A stretch of DNA of 63,997 nucleotides, counting the filler, from Candidatus Woesearchaeota archaeon (GTDB lineage: Archaea; Nanobdellota; Nanobdellia; Woesearchaeales; B72-G16), in assembly GCA_003650545.1 (NCBI GenBank). It is 21 parts of 21 records of this genome, joined end to end, with 100 filler letters (N's around TTAATTAATTAA, not from the genome) between each part and the next. Parts side by side here need not be neighbours in the genome. Positions count along the whole stretch, not along the records: positions 41,540 to 44,377 come from QMQO01000119.1; 20 more parts are not named here. One strand, given 5' to 3'. Made by a program: the position numbers and the translations under genes. Each line of letters begins with the position of its first letter. Position 1 is the first letter of the stretch. This document shows positions 36,181 through 50,128 of this stretch, one piece after another. The notes under the pieces were generated by a model that saw only the letters and a program-made list of their open reading frames with translations, had not been told where the DNA came from and did not search any database.

Positions 36181-37290
36181 ATGAGGGTAACTGAGATACT
36201 TAGTGTTCCTCTTAAAAAGCTGGACAGAGTTCTTCTTCTTGGGCCGCCGGGTATCGGTAAAACCGAAATTATTTATCAGAAGGCTGTTGCCGAAGCTGAA
36301 AAGGAGAAAAGAGTTTTCGTTGACCTTAGGAAGGCTAGTCTTGAGCAGCTTGAGGAAATATATCATCACCCGGAAAAGTACTTTGTTTATCTGAGGCTAA
36401 TAGCGACACATATTTTCCCGGAGGACGTAAGCATTCCTAGGGAGGTTAACAGGTTGGCTGTAATATTTAAGACACCGATGACAATAGCTGTTCTAACGAA
36501 GCCGGAAATAAAGGGCGTGTTGTTCATTGACGAGCTAACCAACATTCAGAGGACGGATCAGAGAGTGCTTTTCTACAGTCTTATTCAGGAGAAGGAGATT
36601 GGATGGAACGTTAAGCTGTCAGACGATATCGTGGTTGTTGCGGCAAGTAATCCTCCGGAGTGGAGTGCTGACGCCTCTCTTCTAGCTAACCCGCTAATAA
36701 ACAGGATGACGGTTGTTAATGTTGAGCAGCCAACGATTGACGAATGGTACAACTATATGAATAGGAGGTTTGAGGACGCATGGGATAAGAGGGTTTACGC
36801 ATACCTTAAAATGTACCCTGAGGACTTCATTAGGAGACCGGACGATGTTGAAACGCTTGAGAACTTCCCAACACCTAGGGCTTGGACAAGGCTTGCAACA
36901 ATAATCAGCGGCATAAACAGCTTCAACATAGTGTCCGAGTACGCGTTTGGAACAGTCGGTAAGCAGGCTGGGGCAAAGTTCGCCGCATTCCTTAAAACAG
37001 AGATACCGTCTGTTGAGGAGTTCCTGAATAAGTTTGCGGAGTACTGGGAGTACTTCGGAATGGAGCAGAAGTTCCTTATGACATACAGTGTTGCACAGAA
37101 GGCGGGAAGAATGCTTACAAACGCTAAGCTACAGAGGTTCCTAAGGTACCTTATGGACTACGAGAGGGAAATGCTGATGCTACTCATACTTATGATGCCG
37201 AAGGGGCACAGGATCAAAATGCTTAACACTAAGGGAACCAAGGAAATAATAATTGAGCTTGCAGATAAGCTCAAAAACTACATTGTCTAG
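36181..37290 (+). CDS. MoxR-like AAA+ ATPase
   Basis: GPPGIGKT, LFIDEL, AASNPPE, PLINRM, FPTPRAW. Confidence 0.9.
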   Translation: MRVTEILSVPLKKLDRVLLLGPPGIGKTEIIYQKAVAEAEKEKRVFVDLRKASLEQLEEIYHHPEKYFVYLRLIATHIFPEDVSIPREVNRLAVIFKTPMTIAVLTKPEIKGVLFIDELTNIQRTDQRVLFYSLIQEKEIGWNVKLSDDIVVVAASNPPEWSADASLLANPLINRMTVVNVEQPTIDEWYNYMNRRFEDAWDKRVYAYLKMYPEDFIRRPDDVETLENFPTPRAWTRLATIISGINSFNIVSEYAFGTVGKQAGAKFAAFLKTEIPSVEEFLNKFAEYWEYFGMEQKFLMTYSVAQKAGRMLTNAKLQRFLRYLMDYEREMLMLLILMMPKGHRIKMLNTKGTKEIIIELADKLKNYIV

Positions 37291-37319
37291 CAACACACTT
37301 TATTTTTCGGGGGAGCACT

Positions 37320-38483
37320 GTGAAGGATGTTGTTGAGAAGTTCAGGAACATTCTTAGCTCACTCATGTTCAACCATGTATTCTACGGTCTTCTTCTCAAA
37401 AGGCTGAGAGTTGTTTACATTAACGACGAGAACATGCCTCCGTGTGGTGTAAACAAGAGGGAAATAATTTTGTCGCCGAAGTTCTTCAGGTACAATAACT
37501 GTGTTCAGCAGTACATTCTAGCCCACGAGGCAATGCATGTCGCCCTTTCACACCCGGAGAGGATGAGGAGGTTTGCTGAAAGATTCAAAATACTGAATAT
37601 TAACGTGTTGTTCAATGTTGTTGCAGACGGCAAAATAAACGATGTTTTAGATGAGGAGTTCGAGTGTGCACCTGACGGAAGAATCACCATTAGCCGTGTT
37701 GCTATGCTTCTCGACATTGACGTTGAAACTTTGAGGAAGCTTTCAGTTGAGGAAATACTGCTGAGAGCAATAAAGAAAGGAAGTAAAATGGCTGTTAAAA
37801 TAGATGAAATAGTGTCTGAGCCTACAAACGATATTTCACCCGAAACAGGGAAAGGTCAATGTGAAAAATCCGGGAAGAAAGTTGTTGTTCTAAACGAAGG
37901 CGACAGGGAAATAGAGAAGGCAAAGGACGATAAGGAGCTTGAGAAGATTAAGAAGAAAATACTTGCAGAAGTCCTTGTTTCCTCGAAGTCAATTGGCAGG
38001 GCGCCTTTAGGTGTTGAAAGAATAGTTAGCGGAATGCTTAAGCCAAAGGTTGACTGGAGAAGAATAATTAAGTCGGCAATGGAGAAGGCTTTAGGTAACG
38101 ACGTTAGGAAAACATGGAGTAGGAGCTCAAGGAAGAACCCTGACTACCCTGCGAAATACACTATTGGCGTCAACAAGGTAATTATTCTAGCAGACACGTC
38201 CGGAAGCATAAGCCAGAAACAGCTTAGGCAGTATATTGGTGAAATATTTTCAATATCGAAGATTGCTAGGAAAATAATTGTTGTACCTTGGGATGTTGAA
38301 GCATACAAGGAAATAGTTGTTAGAAGCAGAGCAGACATCAGGAAGGTTAGGGTTGGTCTTAGAGGCGGAGGAGGAACACTAATACATGATGCCTTAAAGA
38401 AAGCGCTAGACATTATGTCTAATGGCGACATAGTTGTTATTCTAAGCGACTACTACATAGGAGACCTGTACGGTGGTGGTGTA
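37320..38483 (+). CDS. DUF2201-type metallopeptidase plus VWA protein (3' truncated)
   Basis: LAHEAMHVALSH, N..AD..IN, MIDAS DTSGSI, GGGGT, LSD. Confidence 0.88.
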
Positions 38484-38583
38484 NNNNNNNNNNNNNNNNN
38501 NNNNNNNNNNNNNNNNNNNNNNNNNNNTTAATTAATTAANNNNNNNNNNNNNNNNNNNNNNNNNNNNNNNNNNNNNNNNNNNN

Positions 38584-41539: not shown

Positions 41540-41652
41540 CAGTACTTACACCTGAGGTTACATCTTCCCGAAGCCCATGCTGTAAACTCTGTTACACGGC
41601 TTGGAACATATTGTAGTGCATAAGGCGGGAAATCAACATCAAGCCTGTACAT
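41540..41652 (-). CDS. Radical SAM enzyme, N-terminus (truncated at the contig edge)
   Basis: ...WASGRCNLRCKY followed by TG at the edge, consistent with CxxxCxxC; overlaps the upstream gene. Confidence 0.78.
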
Positions 41653-42070
41653 TTGTTTGCCTTCTTTGCCTAGGCTCAATCCTCACACCCTTGAACTCCT
41701 CATTAATGCTTGGAAGCCTTGGTTGAACTTGTAGTTGTTGCGGTCTTTGCTGTACCATAGGATACTGTTGTTGCATTGAACCTAGTATCTGTGATACAAC
41801 CTGATTAACGATCACAGGGATCGTCTGCATAAGAACATTGGTAACCGCATTAGAAATAGTAACAGCTAGATCATGTTGCCGGATCTGTGGTTGTATCTGT
41901 GGTTGCAATGGTTGTTGGATCGGTATCTGCTGCTGCACCACACCAGATTCACAACTATAGCATAATTGGCATGTTTCACAAGTTCCTTCACACCTTACAC
42001 AAGACTGGCATGAATAACAGTTCTGGCAACTATAACATATATTGCATGGGAGATTAGACATGTAGTCCAC
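41639..42070 (-). CDS. Cys-repeat (11 Cys) protein with a Gln/Pro-rich tail
   Basis: MSNLP-CNICYSCQNCYSCQSCVRCEGTCETCQLCYSCES, then QQQIPIQQP... Confidence 0.75.
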   Translation of the reverse strand: MDYMSNLPCNICYSCQNCYSCQSCVRCEGTCETCQLCYSCESGVVQQQIPIQQPLQPQIQPQIRQHDLAVTISNAVTNVLMQTIPVIVNQVVSQILGSMQQQYPMVQQRPQQLQVQPRLPSINEEFKGVRIEPRQRRQTNVQA

Positions 42071-42112
42071 CTAACACATTATATAATTTTAAATCCTTAA
42101 AAACTGTTTGTT

Positions 42113-42688
42113 TTACAGATAAAAGATCTCACATCTGACACATACTTGGCAATAATAGCATAATTGGCATACATCACAATCCTCACAGCTATAGCATGTA
42201 TAACATCCAGTGAAACAGGCTTGGCAACCATAGCATGTTTGACATGAATCACACTTCATACACGCATAGCATGTTCCTTGGCAAGTAAAGCATACTTGGC
42301 ATCCATAACAGCTATAGCAACTATAGCATGAATAGCATGATGAATAGCATCTTTGGCAAGTATTACAGCTTTGACATCCTACACAAACTTGGCATGACTC
42401 ACATGTTCCATAACACGATACACATGATTGGCAAACATTACAGCTATAGCAACTATAGCATGAATAGCATGATGTATTGCACTTTTGGCAAGTATTACAG
42501 CTTTGGCAACCAATGCATGATTGACAGCTCTCACATGTCCCGTAGCAAACGTTACAAGATTGGCATGCATTGCATACTTGGCAACCATAGCACGAGTAGC
42601 ATGAGACGTTACATCTCTGGCATGTTACACAGCTTTGGCAACTATAGCATATTTGGCAAGCATAGCATGTTCTAAGATTTATAGCCAT
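42113..42688 (-). CDS. Cys-every-third-residue repeat protein (58 Cys in 191 aa)
   Basis: GGTGATAGGTG RBS; 7-aa leader MAINLRT; 22-aa units of Cxxx plus six Cxx. Confidence 0.85.
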   Translation of the reverse strand: MAINLRTCYACQICYSCQSCVTCQRCNVSCYSCYGCQVCNACQSCNVCYGTCESCQSCIGCQSCNTCQKCNTSCYSCYSCYSCNVCQSCVSCYGTCESCQVCVGCQSCNTCQRCYSSCYSCYSCYSCYGCQVCFTCQGTCYACMKCDSCQTCYGCQACFTGCYTCYSCEDCDVCQLCYYCQVCVRCEIFYL

Positions 42689-42700
42689 ACACCTATCACC

Positions 42701-43288
42701 TCACTCATATTGGCATGTAAAGCACCTTTGACATGAATCGCATTTTTGACATCCAAAACAGCTCTGGCACGACTGGCATGAAGCTTGGCAAATATTGCAT
42801 AGCTCACATAGTTGGCATATCTGACAATAATAACAGTCATAACATGAAACATTGCACTTTTGGCATGTGTTACATGATTGGCATCCTACACAGCTTTGAC
42901 AACTTTCACATGAACCATAGCATGATACACAGGATTGGCAAGTATTACAGCTTTCACATGAATAGCACGAGTAGCATGAAGCATTACATTTTTGACACGA
43001 TACACAAGATTGGCATGTTACACAGCTTTGGCATGACTGACATGATCCGTAGCATGATACGCATTTTTGGCAAGTATTGCAGAGTTCACATGAATAGCAA
43101 CTGTAGCAGGATGAATAACAGCTCTGGCATGTATTGCACTTTTGGCATGTTACACAGCTCTGGCAGGACTGGCATGAACCGTAGCACGTGACGCATGTTT
43201 CACATGTCTCGCATACCTCGCACCTGGCGCATTCCCTGTCCCTCAGGTTAGCCGTTTTCTCAGCATATCTCCTGGTATCTATGCTCAT
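42701..43288 (-). CDS. Cys-every-third-residue repeat protein (56 Cys in 195 aa)
   Basis: ATGA overlap with the upstream gene; leader ...TANLRDRE; same 22-aa/7-Cys period. Confidence 0.85.
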   Translation of the reverse strand: MSIDTRRYAEKTANLRDRECARCEVCETCETCVTCYGSCQSCQSCVTCQKCNTCQSCYSSCYSCYSCELCNTCQKCVSCYGSCQSCQSCVTCQSCVSCQKCNASCYSCYSCESCNTCQSCVSCYGSCESCQSCVGCQSCNTCQKCNVSCYDCYYCQICQLCELCNICQASCQSCQSCFGCQKCDSCQRCFTCQYE

Positions 43289-44376
43289 CTCCTGACACCC
43301 CATACTTCAAGTAGCTTGTTGTAAGCCGTCCCGCTGTCACTATATATCTTTACGTGTATTGTATGGATCCCGTCTCCCAGATCACTTATATCTACTTCAC
43401 CAGCTACAAGCGTCTCGCTAGTGCTTGTGGTTGAAAGGGTGAGCCTCGGCGAAGCCTCGTCATTGATATAGACCTTGAGGTAAGCGGTGCCCGAAGTAGT
43501 CCATAGGCTGGCGAGAACGATCAGCCTGCTGATAGGCTCGTAGGTTGAGTGCTTGGCGAAGCGAGCATACTTCACTTCTGTTTCACTTGTTCCCGCTGAA
43601 ACCAGCGTATCATCCCAGATAATTGGAACCCTGACACCATAGACATCGCCATCAACGAACAAAGAGCCGGCAAAGTGCCCGTTCCGCCACCTAAGTGTCT
43701 CACTCCCTATGTCGAGTGCATTATCATTTGCTGGCAGTAACCTACCTTTCTGTGTGACTTCGCCTGTATGACTTACTTTCCATACCCAACTTTTTGTTAC
43801 AAGTCTTTCACCGATACCCCAATAATTTGCACCGATACCCCATACATTAGTACCAACTACAAATGTGTAACCAGCTTTACTTGATGGTGGGTTACCAAAT
43901 AATGTTACCTGCGGTATAAACGCTATGCTAGCCTCGTTACCGCTGGGATTACCTATCTGTAACTGTCCGCAACCAAAATCACTTGACTTTATCACAACTT
44001 TACTACCCACACCAGGAGTCCCGAACCCTACCGGAAGCCCAGTCTGAAGCGAACCACTTAGATATGCATTCCTCCATCTATAATTAATGCTACCTATGTC
44101 GAAGGCGTTGTCACTACCTGGTAGGAAATGCTCCCATACTTTCACATAATTATTCACTAAGGCTTGGAATACTGTCTTCCAGTCGGTGCCACCAGCTGTC
44201 TGGGTAATTGCTATCCTGACGTCTCCATTCCCAACCATAAGTTCCGCTGACTTACGCGTACTGTCTGGTATAGTGTCGGTGAAGAAGTCGTAGTTATAGA
44301 CTAACCTAGTCCAAAATACATCATTTTTCTGCACCCCACCAAGACCATCCCATATATTTATATGATTGCTTGGATG
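43285..44376 (-). CDS. Tail-fibre-like viral protein (5' truncated)
   Basis: Duplicated LP..DNA.DIGS...RWRN....G motif typical of fibre shafts; beta-rich C-terminal domain. Confidence 0.6.
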   Translation of the reverse strand, partial: HPSNHINIWDGLGGVQKNDVFWTRLVYNYDFFTDTIPDSTRKSAELMVGNGDVRIAITQTAGGTDWKTVFQALVNNYVKVWEHFLPGSDNAFDIGSINYRWRNAYLSGSLQTGLPVGFGTPGVGSKVVIKSSDFGCGQLQIGNPSGNEASIAFIPQVTLFGNPPSSKAGYTFVVGTNVWGIGANYWGIGERLVTKSWVWKVSHTGEVTQKGRLLPANDNALDIGSETLRWRNGHFAGSLFVDGDVYGVRVPIIWDDTLVSAGTSETEVKYARFAKHSTYEPISRLIVLASLWTTSGTAYLKVYINDEASPRLTLSTTSTSETLVAGEVDISDLGDGIHTIHVKIYSDSGTAYNKLLEVWGVRR

Positions 44377-44534
44377 CNNNNNNNNNNNNNNNNNNNNNNN
44401 NNNNNNNNNNNNNNNNNNNNNTTAATTAATTAANNNNNNNNNNNNNNNNNNNNNNNNNNNNNNNNNNNNNNNNNNNNGCACGGATCGACACTAGCGCTAA
44501 AAGTAATATCTTTTTTTATTTTTATCTATTTTTC

Positions 44535-47356: not shown

Positions 47357-47586
47357 GGATATAGGGGGAACGATAATCACTTGCGGGTGCACCCGGGGCC
47401 TCGGGCGGGTTCTTTTCTCGGCGGCCTCGGCGGGAGCCGGCGGCGTTTTCGGGCGGCGGCCTCGAGGTTTTCGGGGGCCGGTTTCGGCGGCTCGGCGGGT
47501 GCACCTTTTAGTGTTTTCGAGTCAAAATTTTCGGGAAAAGAGCTTTGTTGAAAAAGTTTTTGGGCTTAAAAAACTGTTTTGGGTTT
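47357..47586. repeat. GC-rich non-coding end region with CGGCGG(C)CTCG and TTTTCGG repeats and the 12-bp palindrome CGGGTGCACCCG
   Basis: Read directly; much higher GC than the rest of the contig. Confidence 0.6.
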
Positions 47587-47829
47587 TTAGATTGGTTTTT
47601 TCTCGGCTTCCTCGAGTTTCTTCTTGTTAACGTCAATACTTCTTACGAGTTTTTCTATTATCTTGTTAAGAAACGATTCTATGCTTAGGAGAGCGTCTAA
47701 TACGTCTGGGTTATTAATATATTTCTTTTCAAGACTTCTTATCTCATGGATAATGGTCTGATACGCTCTCAATCTACGATAACTTAGTCTTAGTCTGCGC
47801 TCTATCTTCTTAGTGTCAACATGTTTCAT
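47587..47829 (-). CDS. Small basic coiled-coil protein
   Basis: MKHVDTKKIERRLRL...; helical and K/R-rich. Confidence 0.5.
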   Translation of the reverse strand: MKHVDTKKIERRLRLSYRRLRAYQTIIHEIRSLEKKYINNPDVLDALLSIESFLNKIIEKLVRSIDVNKKKLEEAEKKPI

Positions 47830-47948
47830 GGCGGGGGCCCCCGGTGCACTAGAGTATTTTTCTTCCTTCAAGGCACATTATTATGCAGAGCTCTATTGCG
47901 TCGGGTGCACCATATATTCCTTTGCAGAGATCCCTGCATATTTTGAGC

Positions 47949-48272
47949 TTAACAGGGTCGTACTTCGTAGTCTTTTGCAAGATCCTCGCCCCACATAGTT
48001 ATTACTACACATATCTTGTCCCCGGTTCTATGCTCCCACAACGTCATTAATTGTTGGGCGAGTTTCTCAGAGAGTACTCTAAACGTCTTCTTAGTGGGTG
48101 CACCGTCTTCCTCTAATACATCCCATTCCAATGCCCTAACCGTCTTGGTCATTTTTGTCTTTGGATCACGGATAGCGTATTCTACTATTCTTGGATTTGT
48201 TAATACTAGTCTCTTAGGCTTCCCCGGCTCAAGATACACGTAATTAGCGAGTATTCGTGCGGGTAAAGGCAT
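47949..48272 (-). CDS. Beta-rich hypothetical protein (possibly OB-fold)
   Basis: GAGGTG RBS before ATG 48272. Confidence 0.5.
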   Translation of the reverse strand: MPLPARILANYVYLEPGKPKRLVLTNPRIVEYAIRDPKTKMTKTVRALEWDVLEEDGAPTKKTFRVLSEKLAQQLMTLWEHRTGDKICVVITMWGEDLAKDYEVRPC

Positions 48273-48302
48273 AGGGTGCACCTCACATAATTATTAGCTT
48301 AT

Positions 48303-48791
48303 TCATGGAATATATCCATACTCCCTCAAGATAGGATCAAGCCATGGCGGGTGATATACTTCGAAAACAATCCCCTTAGCCTTGCACAATGCCTCAAGGT
48401 TCTCGTCATGACGCCAATACACAAGCTTAAGAACTATTGGTCTCGGCAAGAACTTCTGCAGATCGGGATCCTTATATGCTAGAATTCTATAAAATTCTAA
48501 TTGGCTAATACCCTTCATGGGGTCGTGCACCTTGAACTCGATCAGCTCTATACGGTCTTCGAAGACGCATACAGCGTCAACGTATGGATTATAGACTCTG
48601 AGTGCACCATGCGGGATCCCCGGATGCATAGCCTGCAGCTGCTTAGACGTAGGGCCTAGTCTTTTATGTGCGGTGCGGTATATAGCGTTGGTGCACCTAG
48701 TAACAAGATATTCTAAAACCATACGTCTCTCAACCATCCTATAGGGTCTTCTATTTCCTTTCCTGAGATTACGCCATTCAAAAGAACTCAT
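48303..48791 (-). CDS. PD-(D/E)XK-family nuclease
   Basis: E...PYVDAV.....LIEFK......SQL..Y. Confidence 0.65.
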   Translation of the reverse strand: MSSFEWRNLRKGNRRPYRMVERRMVLEYLVTRCTNAIYRTAHKRLGPTSKQLQAMHPGIPHGALRVYNPYVDAVCVFEDRIELIEFKVHDPMKGISQLEFYRILAYKDPDLQKFLPRPIVLKLVYWRHDENLEALCKAKGIVFEVYHPPWLDPILREYGYIP

Positions 48792-48905
48792 AATATACAC
48801 CTATTCCGATGTGGTGCACCTGTATAAAAATATGCGTAAACTACTACTTATGTATTCATGAATAATATTCATGTACAAAAAACTACTCGGAGGTGAAGGG
48901 GTAGA

Positions 48906-49337
48906 ATGGTAAGCCTCAGACCCCTAGAAAAGATAATCGAGAAATGGAAGAATAGAGCAGTCGCTGCGCAAGGAGACTACCAGTTCGGAATACAGAATCC
49001 CTTGAAAGACTGGGCAACTAACGCAGCAGCCGCACAAGACGCATGGGCCGCAGGAGTACAAGACGCTATCAGCAGGGGAGCATTCGGTAAGGGAGTAAAG
49101 AAAGTCGGCACCGAAAAATGGCAGAGGAAAGCCATGCAATTAGGTGCACCTCGTTATGCACAGGGAGTACAAGCAAGCGATGTAGACTATAGAGCTGGAT
49201 TCGAGCCATACTATGAGGCTCTCAGCAGATTAACACTACCGCCAAGAGGCCCAAGAGGCGATCCAAGAAACCTAGAAAGAGTCCGTATCATTATGGAGAC
49301 TCTCAGAAAGATCAAGACAAGCCAGGGCGGAGGCTAA
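48906..49337 (+). CDS. Basic helical repeat protein, candidate viral nucleocapsid/major capsid protein
   Basis: Strong GGAGGTGA RBS; repeats KWKNRAVAAQGDYQFGIQ / DWATNAAAAQDAWAAGVQ / KWQRKAMQLGAPRYAQGVQ; followed by a T-run. Confidence 0.45.
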   Translation: MVSLRPLEKIIEKWKNRAVAAQGDYQFGIQNPLKDWATNAAAAQDAWAAGVQDAISRGAFGKGVKKVGTEKWQRKAMQLGAPRYAQGVQASDVDYRAGFEPYYEALSRLTLPPRGPRGDPRNLERVRIIMETLRKIKTSQGGG

Positions 49338-49399
49338 TAAACATAGTTTTTTTACAAAATAATCCCCTATTCCAAATCCCATGTATAGGGTGGTAGGGT

Positions 49400-50128
49400 A
49401 TGAAGTATTATAAGCTTGATAAAATATTCGTAGCAAATACGGACTATAGAGCTGAGGACGACAAATTATATGTTATAACCAAGATAGGGACTGATCTATC
49501 AGATGTAAAACCAGCGGTAGCCGGTCAAAAAATAGGTGCACTTTCAAGCGACTTCGCACCACTACATAAGACTTCTAGCAACTTGTTAGGCCCATTTGAT
49601 CTCAAGGACTTATACATAGTGGTACCCCCGAGAAAGATACTGAGATTTGAATCAAGCTCTAGCGGTAAGGTAAGGGCGATTGGTAAGATTATCGAGTTAG
49701 CCCCCGGCGAAGGAATACCAAACGATCTCATGGCGAGATACGAGGCCCACGGCAAAAACTACTATACATATAGCATGGGGACTAAAAGCCTCGACACAGA
49801 TGAAGCATTAACCGCTGATCAAGAAGTAGAAGTATTAAGTCTTAAACCAACGACAATTGAGAAATTCGTGTTTGACAATATTTTAATGCTAGCAATAAGC
49901 GGCGGATCATTCAACGAGGGCGATCTAGCTCTTAGAATCTATGTTGATGATAAACCACTCGACATACTCGAAAGTGCAATGGGTAAGAAAGGAATTGACG
50001 CCTTAAGCATTCCATACCCGCCCGCCGACACAAAAGAAGAAATACCATTCACACTTAACGATATGCCGATCGAGATCCCCGGCGATCACACCATTACGTT
50101 CAAAGTAGTGAATACAAGCGGCGGATCA
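49400..50128 (+). CDS. Beta-rich hypothetical protein, possibly virion structural (truncated)
   Basis: Long ORF following the candidate capsid gene. Confidence 0.4.

Follow-up and report, generated by a model that had tools for sequence, protein, structure and literature searches.

Gene organization and origin of the locus

The stretch of DNA analyzed here (the window, 63,997 nucleotides) consists of small contigs of one genome bin, G000 (1.64 Mb, 133 contigs), joined together. The Cys-repeat locus lies on contig C119, which spans window positions 41540–44377 (2,838 bp) and carries five tightly packed genes, all on the minus strand, in the order tail-fibre-like gene, Cys-repeat proteins A and B, a third Cys/Gln-rich gene (C), and a radical SAM/SPASM gene (Table 1). 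The fibre and A genes share an ATGA overlap, gaps of 12 and 51 bp separate A from B and B from C, and the enzyme gene overlaps the end of C. An earlier reading of the DNA (the sequence-only reading) had described two paralogous proteins here; A and B are paralogs, but it had missed a third one, C (11 Cys), and the truncated radical SAM gene.

Table 1. Features of contig C119, with positions counted along the window
Feature	Position	Strand	Description
Tail-fibre-like gene	43285..44377	-	363-codon open frame; 5' end cut by the contig edge
Cys-repeat protein A	42701..43288	-	195 aa, 56 Cys; 19-aa basic leader and six exact 22-aa units
Cys-repeat protein B	42113..42688	-	191 aa, 58 Cys; 7-aa leader and six exact 22-aa units
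Protein C	41639..42061	-	140 aa; 11-Cys repeat head, then a Gln/Pro-rich region
Radical SAM/SPASM gene	41540..41652	-	first 37 codons; the contig ends within the CxxxCxxC motif

The start of A at 43288 is the second Met of the full open frame (42701–43303); it overlaps the upstream stop in ATGA, has GGAG just upstream, and is most likely the true start. The ESM Atlas entry for A begins at residue 6 of the longer frame. The start of B is preceded by GAGGTGA.

The tail-fibre-like gene gave a weak PHROG tail-fibre match (E 0.0012), and its homologs, P0008 and the 389-aa and 607-aa genes of the related loci L059 and L062, match tail-fibre or minor-tail PHROGs at E 1e-7 to 1e-23. Its C-terminal domain is kept immediately 5' of the Cys genes in related loci. 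The C-terminal part of P0007 is 90% identical to it; P0007 and P0092, a longer relative of the enzyme, appear to share an origin, since both are on 35,125-bp contigs and show sequence identity. A further enzyme relative, P0093, comes from a 48.6-kb contig.

The composition of C119 differs from that of its bin. Its GC content is 0.434 versus about 0.34 for most large contigs of G000, and its tetranucleotide distance is 0.50 versus a mean of 0.20 and a maximum of 0.31 for pieces of the same size from the largest G000 contig (rank 114 of 133 among the contigs of the bin). A blastn search of C119 against the other 132 contigs found no overlap. The contig is probably foreign to G000 and probably viral. 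With a PHROG scan and PF03237, C119, L059, and L061 showed neither a capsid nor a terminase gene; these blanks carry little weight, as PF03237 found a terminase in one of four sequences and missed the L032 terminase seen by PHROGs. Searches of viral contigs with the fibre gene, a fibre alignment, and P0092 gave no matches, and a metagenome scan returned only C119 itself (L006). Contigs from run X1 span the A/B repeats with two mismatches, which argues against mis-assembly; this support is not independent, because X1 may be the source sample. Runs X2–X4 yielded short or divergent pieces only, and no RNA run was listed as containing the locus.

Many other short contigs of G000 have a GC content of 0.45–0.64, compared with about 0.34 in the main contigs, and the contamination figure of 3.9% for the bin likely understates how mixed it is. 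Contig C121 (window 47357–50128; GC 0.45) has small, tightly packed genes, including a basic 143-aa ORF (48906–49337) that we take to resemble an archaeal virus structural protein. On a contig with a GC content of 0.43, an AAA+ ATPase gene is followed by a metallopeptidase/vWA-type gene (window 36181–38531; labels by sequence reading).

The 22-residue repeat

Both A and B parse exactly as first described, into six full units of 22 residues and seven Cys, plus partial ends, with Cys gaps of 4,3,3,3,3,3,3. The probability that a shuffled gap order gives the exact period is 6.4e-8 for A and 5.7e-8 for B, and none of 200,000 shuffles of either protein did so. Cys makes up 28.7% of A and 30.4% of B. 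The two alternating unit types were also borne out: in A, units of the same parity share 10–18 of 22 residues and units of opposite parity 9–12. Across the window, L059, and L061, position 3 is Gly in 13 of 13 odd units (the criterion by which they were sorted), and position 4 is Ser in 11 of 12 even units.

Codon divergence between units was counted as synonymous differences at identical residues, which occurred in 383 of the 779 codon pairs (233 of 462 for Cys codons). This synonymous divergence together with the fixed Cys, and a period of 22 kept in L059 A and in L061 A and B, supports selection on spacing at the protein level, as had been proposed; given the divergence and the conserved orthologs, an artefact of DNA slippage was rejected. 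The absence of His, Pro, and Trp, and of any CxxCH motif, was confirmed in A and B; with no His and no CxxCH, binding of haem was rejected.

Searches of Pfam and NCBIfam with A, B, and C gave nothing useful (no NCBIfam match at E ≤ 1), and A had no matches in viral contigs or annotated phages. The ESM Atlas search with A returned no usable feature match, and structure matches had a TM of at most 0.44 by query. A and B match PHROG 15341, which comprises pure Cxx-repeat phage proteins, at E about 1e-10; those proteins differ in being without regular longer spacers and in having the opposite x1/x2 composition (x1 and x2 being the first and second residues after each Cys). The match is probably compositional, and membership in this family of unknown function was dropped as an explanation.

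The radical SAM/SPASM enzyme

The 37 enzyme residues encoded in the window are identical (37/37) to those of P0093, a 776-aa protein with a 372-aa intein, and 84% identical to P0092 (403 aa), the one match among three candidates in the search for longer relatives; P0093 is a cluster mate of P0092. Judged on these full-length relatives, the enzyme belongs to the radical SAM/SPASM proteins: P0092 matches PF04055, with C31/35/38, and has the seven-Cys SPASM pattern (C269, 287, 333, 336, 342, 345/346, and 365). In P0093 the intein sits at the last Cys of CxxxCxxC; one is apparently also present in L009 (13158–15479), and the L062 match (from 4173) is similarly split.

Among NCBIfam profiles, PapB gave the best match to P0092, followed by nif11, not-ScfB, SCIFF, and QhpD-type maturases, all under cut-off. 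The scores were 214 bits for PapB (NF047865, cut-off 340; five phage enzymes reached 187–230), 120 for the QhpD-type profile (cut-off 453), 104 for the TIGR04115 maturase (cut-off 350), and 72 for TIGR04463, the CrpC family (cut-off 525). The best PDB match was 5wgg/5why (E 2e-30), which is CteB in the accessible text of PMC10288494. The same text lists six catalytic-proximity residues of CteB; with a 3-residue numbering offset, and with CteB as the only enzyme compared, P0092 reads F-F-T-S-H-R and CteB F-F-T-S-H-Q (5/6 identical). The phage members read Y-F-T-S-Q-R.

Only 30 residues precede CxxxCxxC in P0092 and P0093, which leaves no fused N-terminal RRE. Protein C has stand-alone counterparts in L059, L061, and L062, and in L009, L010, L012, L014, and L018 a Cys-repeat N-terminus is fused to the enzyme; C likely corresponds to that fused part.

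Recurrence of the module

A reciprocal search with the enzyme alignment gave 28 viral loci and 80 genome loci (the best 80 of at least 505). Among the matches listed, the nearest enzymes were those of L059 (with its near-copy L060), L061, and L062, with 44–51% identity. These loci lie in bins titled Thermoprotei archaeon, uncultured archaeon, Ca. Culexmicrobium, and "bacterium," and their contigs may be mis-binned like C119. The module of fibre gene, two Cys-repeat genes, C, and enzyme is present in all of them, and further tail-fibre-like genes lie upstream in L059 and L061. The A-type genes of L059, L061, and L062 have a leader similar to the 19-aa basic one of A.

A FastTree phylogeny of 99 rows was built from the loci L007–L141 with an enzyme match, after duplicates and fragments shorter than 230 aa, including L062, were dropped. 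One branch (SH 90) held 15 loci with Cxx-repeat genes, P0092, whose label was taken from the context of the window, and L064, which had no repeats within its 2.9 kb of visible flank. A run of at least 12 Cys of the Cxx type was found within 5 kb in none of the 82 rows outside the branch, many of which have short flanks. The linked enzymes form one clade and were retrieved with patterns drawn from linked enzymes, so the tree counts as one event. Two enzymes linked to Cxxx-type repeats fall outside the Cxx branch.

Spacing and mobility of the repeat in homologs

A phmmer search with the repeat over 1.84 billion representatives gave 85 matches, of which one, P0022, had at least two exact 22-aa units. 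The regular spacing that the sequence-only reading expected of homologs was found in part. The periods of L059 A are 22, 22, 22, 22, and 28, and those of L061 A and B are 22 four times each. L059 B is irregular; in L062 A a period of 16 occurs fourteen times, and the same two Cxxx types alternate there; L062 B has 16 and 31; and phage homologs have spacers of 5–8 residues. A fold that needs exactly 22 residues or seven Cys is therefore unlikely, and the period of 22 is a lineage-specific setting of a variable repeat, its frequency being known among the fetched proteins and loci. From 16 to 22 to 28, each period gains one Cxx-Cxx pair, and the alternation of the two Cxxx types persists; this would fit a two-sided fold with arms that lengthen in steps of six residues.

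P0022 (427 aa; a cluster of four, JGI/IMG) is probably a cellular secreted protein. Its exact 22-aa, seven-Cys period has a D/E-rich x1 and stands before a FlgD-Ig/T9SS-type C-terminal domain. In other proteins the Cys repeat is fused behind unrelated N-terminal parts (P0001, P0017, P0029, P0047, L032:6752-7513, and L036:6786-7496), which include an Ig-like-looking domain, long Ser/Thr/Asp-rich stalks, and small beta-rich heads. Fusion to such varied partners shows the repeat behaving as a mobile C-terminal module.

Fusion to baseplate hub proteins

In tailed phages this repeat type is fused to baseplate hub proteins. Among the top phmmer matches, in a scan of 36 proteins, nine proteins of 560–1100 aa match phrog_8917 and end in Cys repeats. 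The AlphaFold2 model of P0010 has a pLDDT of about 60–90 over residues 130–570, with the Cys tail unresolved, and matches the tail-tip hubs of T5, DT57C, Haloferax tailed virus 1 (HFTV1), and lambda (E 7e-19 to 1e-10). By position, the hub genes in viral contigs come after a tape-measure and a Dit-like gene.

A search with the hub alignment gave 22 loci. Six of them (L009, L010, L012, L014, L018, and L019; five distinct) combine a Cys tail on the hub with a free Cys-repeat gene followed by a PapB-like enzyme (187–230 bits), and these enzymes bear Cys repeats at their own N-terminus. In five others (L008, L013, and L015–L017; three distinct) the hub has a His-x-Asp tail of 13–35 motifs, and in the three of the five scanned the enzyme that follows has DynA or YhhB as its best match (71–77 bits). 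Five loci with tail-less hubs (L021–L023, L025, and L027; three distinct) showed no such enzyme, with at least 7 kb visible downstream only in L023 and L027. Of the remainder, L007 and L011 have a Cys tail on a contig that ends early, the hub itself is truncated in L020 and L026, and L024 and L028 are not hubs.

That repeat type and enzyme class switch in step is the strongest argument for the repeats being substrates, in a comparison with a small number of independent events. On one and the same baseplate hub, repeat and enzyme may form a cassette that can be exchanged between Cys-thioether and His-x-Asp cyclophane chemistry. The His cassettes lie at L008:5108-9092, L013:8924-13144, and L015:9986-15486 (also in L016 and L017), and the C-terminus of their enzyme has His-x-Asp motifs.

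Residue patterns and proposed chemistry

In all four enzyme-linked sets, x1 is D/E/N/Q in 60–68% and Y/F/V in 15–37% of the triplets, and x2 is S/T/G/A in 58–73% and D/E in 2–4%. In a contrast set of 14 pure-Cxx proteins (phrog_15341 type), D/E/N/Q occupy x2 in 61%. The x1 residue lies at i+4 of the preceding Cys, which is the PapB register. The CX3D/E rule fails: D or E is found at i+4 in 13 of the 124 window Cys (A, B, and C), in 40 of 195 in L059 and L061, and in 422 of 1232 in the phage sets. PapB so far needs acidic (Asp/Glu-type carboxylate) acceptors, in the available text of PMC12373016. With only 13 of 124 Cys so placed, the chemistry either differs from that of PapB or touches few Cys. 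The accessible part of PMC8326336 describes CteB as joining Cys to Thr at i+2 or i+5, and NxxcB as joining it to Asn; these acceptors would fit x2 and x1, respectively. CrpC installs ranthionine links in CrpA, a Cys-repeat protein, at motifs that include CAGM, CAVD, and CPLV (PMC13692751, main text as available). A solenoid with side-chain ladders could explain the bias at x1 and x2 equally well.

Among the options that the sequence-only reading offered for a Cys ladder, the thioether is now the best supported, because a PapB/CteB-like radical SAM gene follows directly downstream; the link between this gene and the repeats is one we infer. The reading was thus supported in part, for selection on spacing and, as the best-backed option, for the thioether; its metal or Fe-S chain found no direct support.

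We propose, with a probability of roughly 55%, that A and B are substrates of the enzyme, cross-linked from Cys to carbon by thioethers, and form a stiff part of a virion tail appendage (tip or fibre) of a probable virus. Because the enzyme has no room for an N-terminal RRE, it would dock on the short conserved N-termini of A and B, perhaps aided by protein C. It would then abstract a hydrogen from a side-chain carbon and join that carbon to a Cys sulfur, repeatedly along the chain. The acceptor would most likely be the residue after the next Cys (i+4; 60% D/E/N/Q and 37% Y/F/V) or a Ser/Thr at i+2 or i+5, and the product would be a rod on the particle that is non-reducible and withstands heat and proteases. 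The virion location of A and B, which are free-standing, is suggested by their neighbours and by the fusions elsewhere; a counterpoint is the exact 22-aa period of P0022, which is not a virion context.

Metal-stabilised phage fibre tips exist, and the Cys of A and B could for the most part stay unlinked and coordinate Zn, Fe, or Fe-S along the length of a virion fibre, while the enzyme modifies few residues or another protein. Seven CxxCxxCxxxC runs per protein, the 4-Cys blocks of which many phage homologs are built, and the few acidic acceptors in the window proteins would agree with this, and it is compatible with partial cross-linking. However, the Cys per block vary among homologs (4, 5, 7, and 9), unlike a fixed cluster stoichiometry, and the switch of enzyme class with repeat type is left unexplained. 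No CxxCxxCxxxCP motif was found and no Pfam ferredoxin (Fer4) match at E ≤ 1, as a bacterial-type ferredoxin or polyferredoxin would have, and we consider metal binding along the chain unlikely.

Rather improbable too is that A and B are substrates of a chemistry other than side-chain thioether formation, such as S-to-alpha-carbon links, Cys oxidation, or cross-links through Tyr. The poor CX3D fit, an x1 that tolerates Y, V, and F, and the R at the sixth proximity residue in place of the Q of CteB, shared by the phage members, could be read in this way, and some sactisynthases resemble ranthisynthases (PMC10288494, in the part available). The top profile matches are nevertheless thioether formers, and CrpC uses non-acidic motifs yet gives ranthionine-type fragmentation (PMC13692751, text as available).

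The sequence-only reading had suggested predicting the monomer structure. An AlphaFold2 model of A from a 7-row alignment had a pLDDT of 42 and was uninformative, with fold matches at background, and the solenoid shape is a low-confidence prediction of this model. It bears on whether A and B might be a disulfide-laddered beta-solenoid, as in beetle antifreeze protein (AFP), with the neighbouring enzyme acting on another target. The Cys number per unit is odd (7; 5 in L062 A), but the paired alternation makes it even per super-repeat; beta strands are present in the model, which matches beta-helices best (Z 6.4, rmsd 12.6), with Tenebrio AFP at Z 4.3 and rmsd 3.1 over 80 residues. A pLDDT of 42 and Z values below 8 both lie in the background range. 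The module contains no other recurrent candidate substrate, and in the available text of PMC13692751 a predicted beta-helix of CrpA conflicted with the measured cross-links. A disulfide solenoid seems unlikely as well.

The least probable reading casts A and B as RiPP-like precursors that merely happen to lie in the late operon and whose modified products act outside the virion, in host manipulation or competition. In its favour, they are free-standing genes with short conserved leaders, and the probably secreted P0022 has the same period. Against it, many relatives carry this repeat type joined to baseplate hubs or to other long N-terminal domains, and the PHROG scan of the L059, L061, and L062 modules recognised neither a protease nor a transporter gene.

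If thioether cross-linking of A and B is correct, the chemistry of peptide natural products is used for building virus particles, at a cross-link density far above that of characterised substrates (56–58 Cys per chain versus 6 in PapA). The enzyme itself would make thioethers without an RRE, likely processively and probably on non-acidic acceptors, and would be of use for protein stapling. More tentatively, and at somewhat less than even odds, viruses of bacteria, and probably of archaea, would encode their own radical SAM enzyme to close dozens of thioether rings along a tail protein of 190 residues, giving a covalent ladder polymer at the end that contacts the host, with the Cys-thioether and His-x-Asp cyclophane cassettes exchangeable on one hub. 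The matched swap on one hub family gives comparative support for the link between enzyme and substrate. In the literature covered, mostly titles and abstracts with few subscription papers, we met no account of virion tail proteins being cross-linked by a radical SAM enzyme.

Comparison with known systems

The A/B system is best read as working like CrpA/CrpC and ranthipeptide systems, but it falls below their membership cut-offs. In CrpA/CrpC of Methanococcus voltae (TIGR04463), a SPASM radical SAM enzyme likewise stands beside a protein-sized, Cys-rich tandem repeat; ranthionine links in non-acidic motifs have been shown there, and both systems have a low-confidence beta-helix prediction (PMC13692751, as far as available). 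It differs in its cellular cluster, its 17-aa repeat, and the RRE of CrpC. The main and supplement text of PMC13692751, in the portion available, makes no mention of phage, tail, or virion for CrpA/CrpC; its Figure S3 gives further archaeal Cys-repeat clusters, which may include similar repeats. In QhpD/QhpC (quinohemoprotein amine dehydrogenase), radical SAM thioether cross-linking also acts on a protein subunit and not on a released peptide, but with three links within an enzyme subunit (accessible text of PMC8326336 and PMC13692751).

PapB/PapA (freyrasin; NF047865) and CteB/SCIFF (5WGG/5WHY) are the best profile and PDB matches and share the SPASM cysteines with the enzyme studied here, which reads like CteB at five of the six proximity residues. 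Their substrates, like A and B, have a Cys-rich core after a short leader. The present system differs in its score under the cut-off, the absence of a fused RRE, the number of Cys, the few CX3D positions, and the tail-gene context. The CXXX-repeat system (maturase TIGR04115), whose target model we take to be TIGR04114, likewise has long Cys-periodic repeat proteins beside a SPASM enzyme, but the Cys spacing of A and B is 3 except for seven gaps of 4 per protein, and no tandem CXXX target is present. Phage examples of that system are L141:5065-5858 (Erwinia phage Caitlin) and L045:5578-6492, where Cxxx-type repeat frames lie beside radical SAM genes of a separate enzyme lineage.
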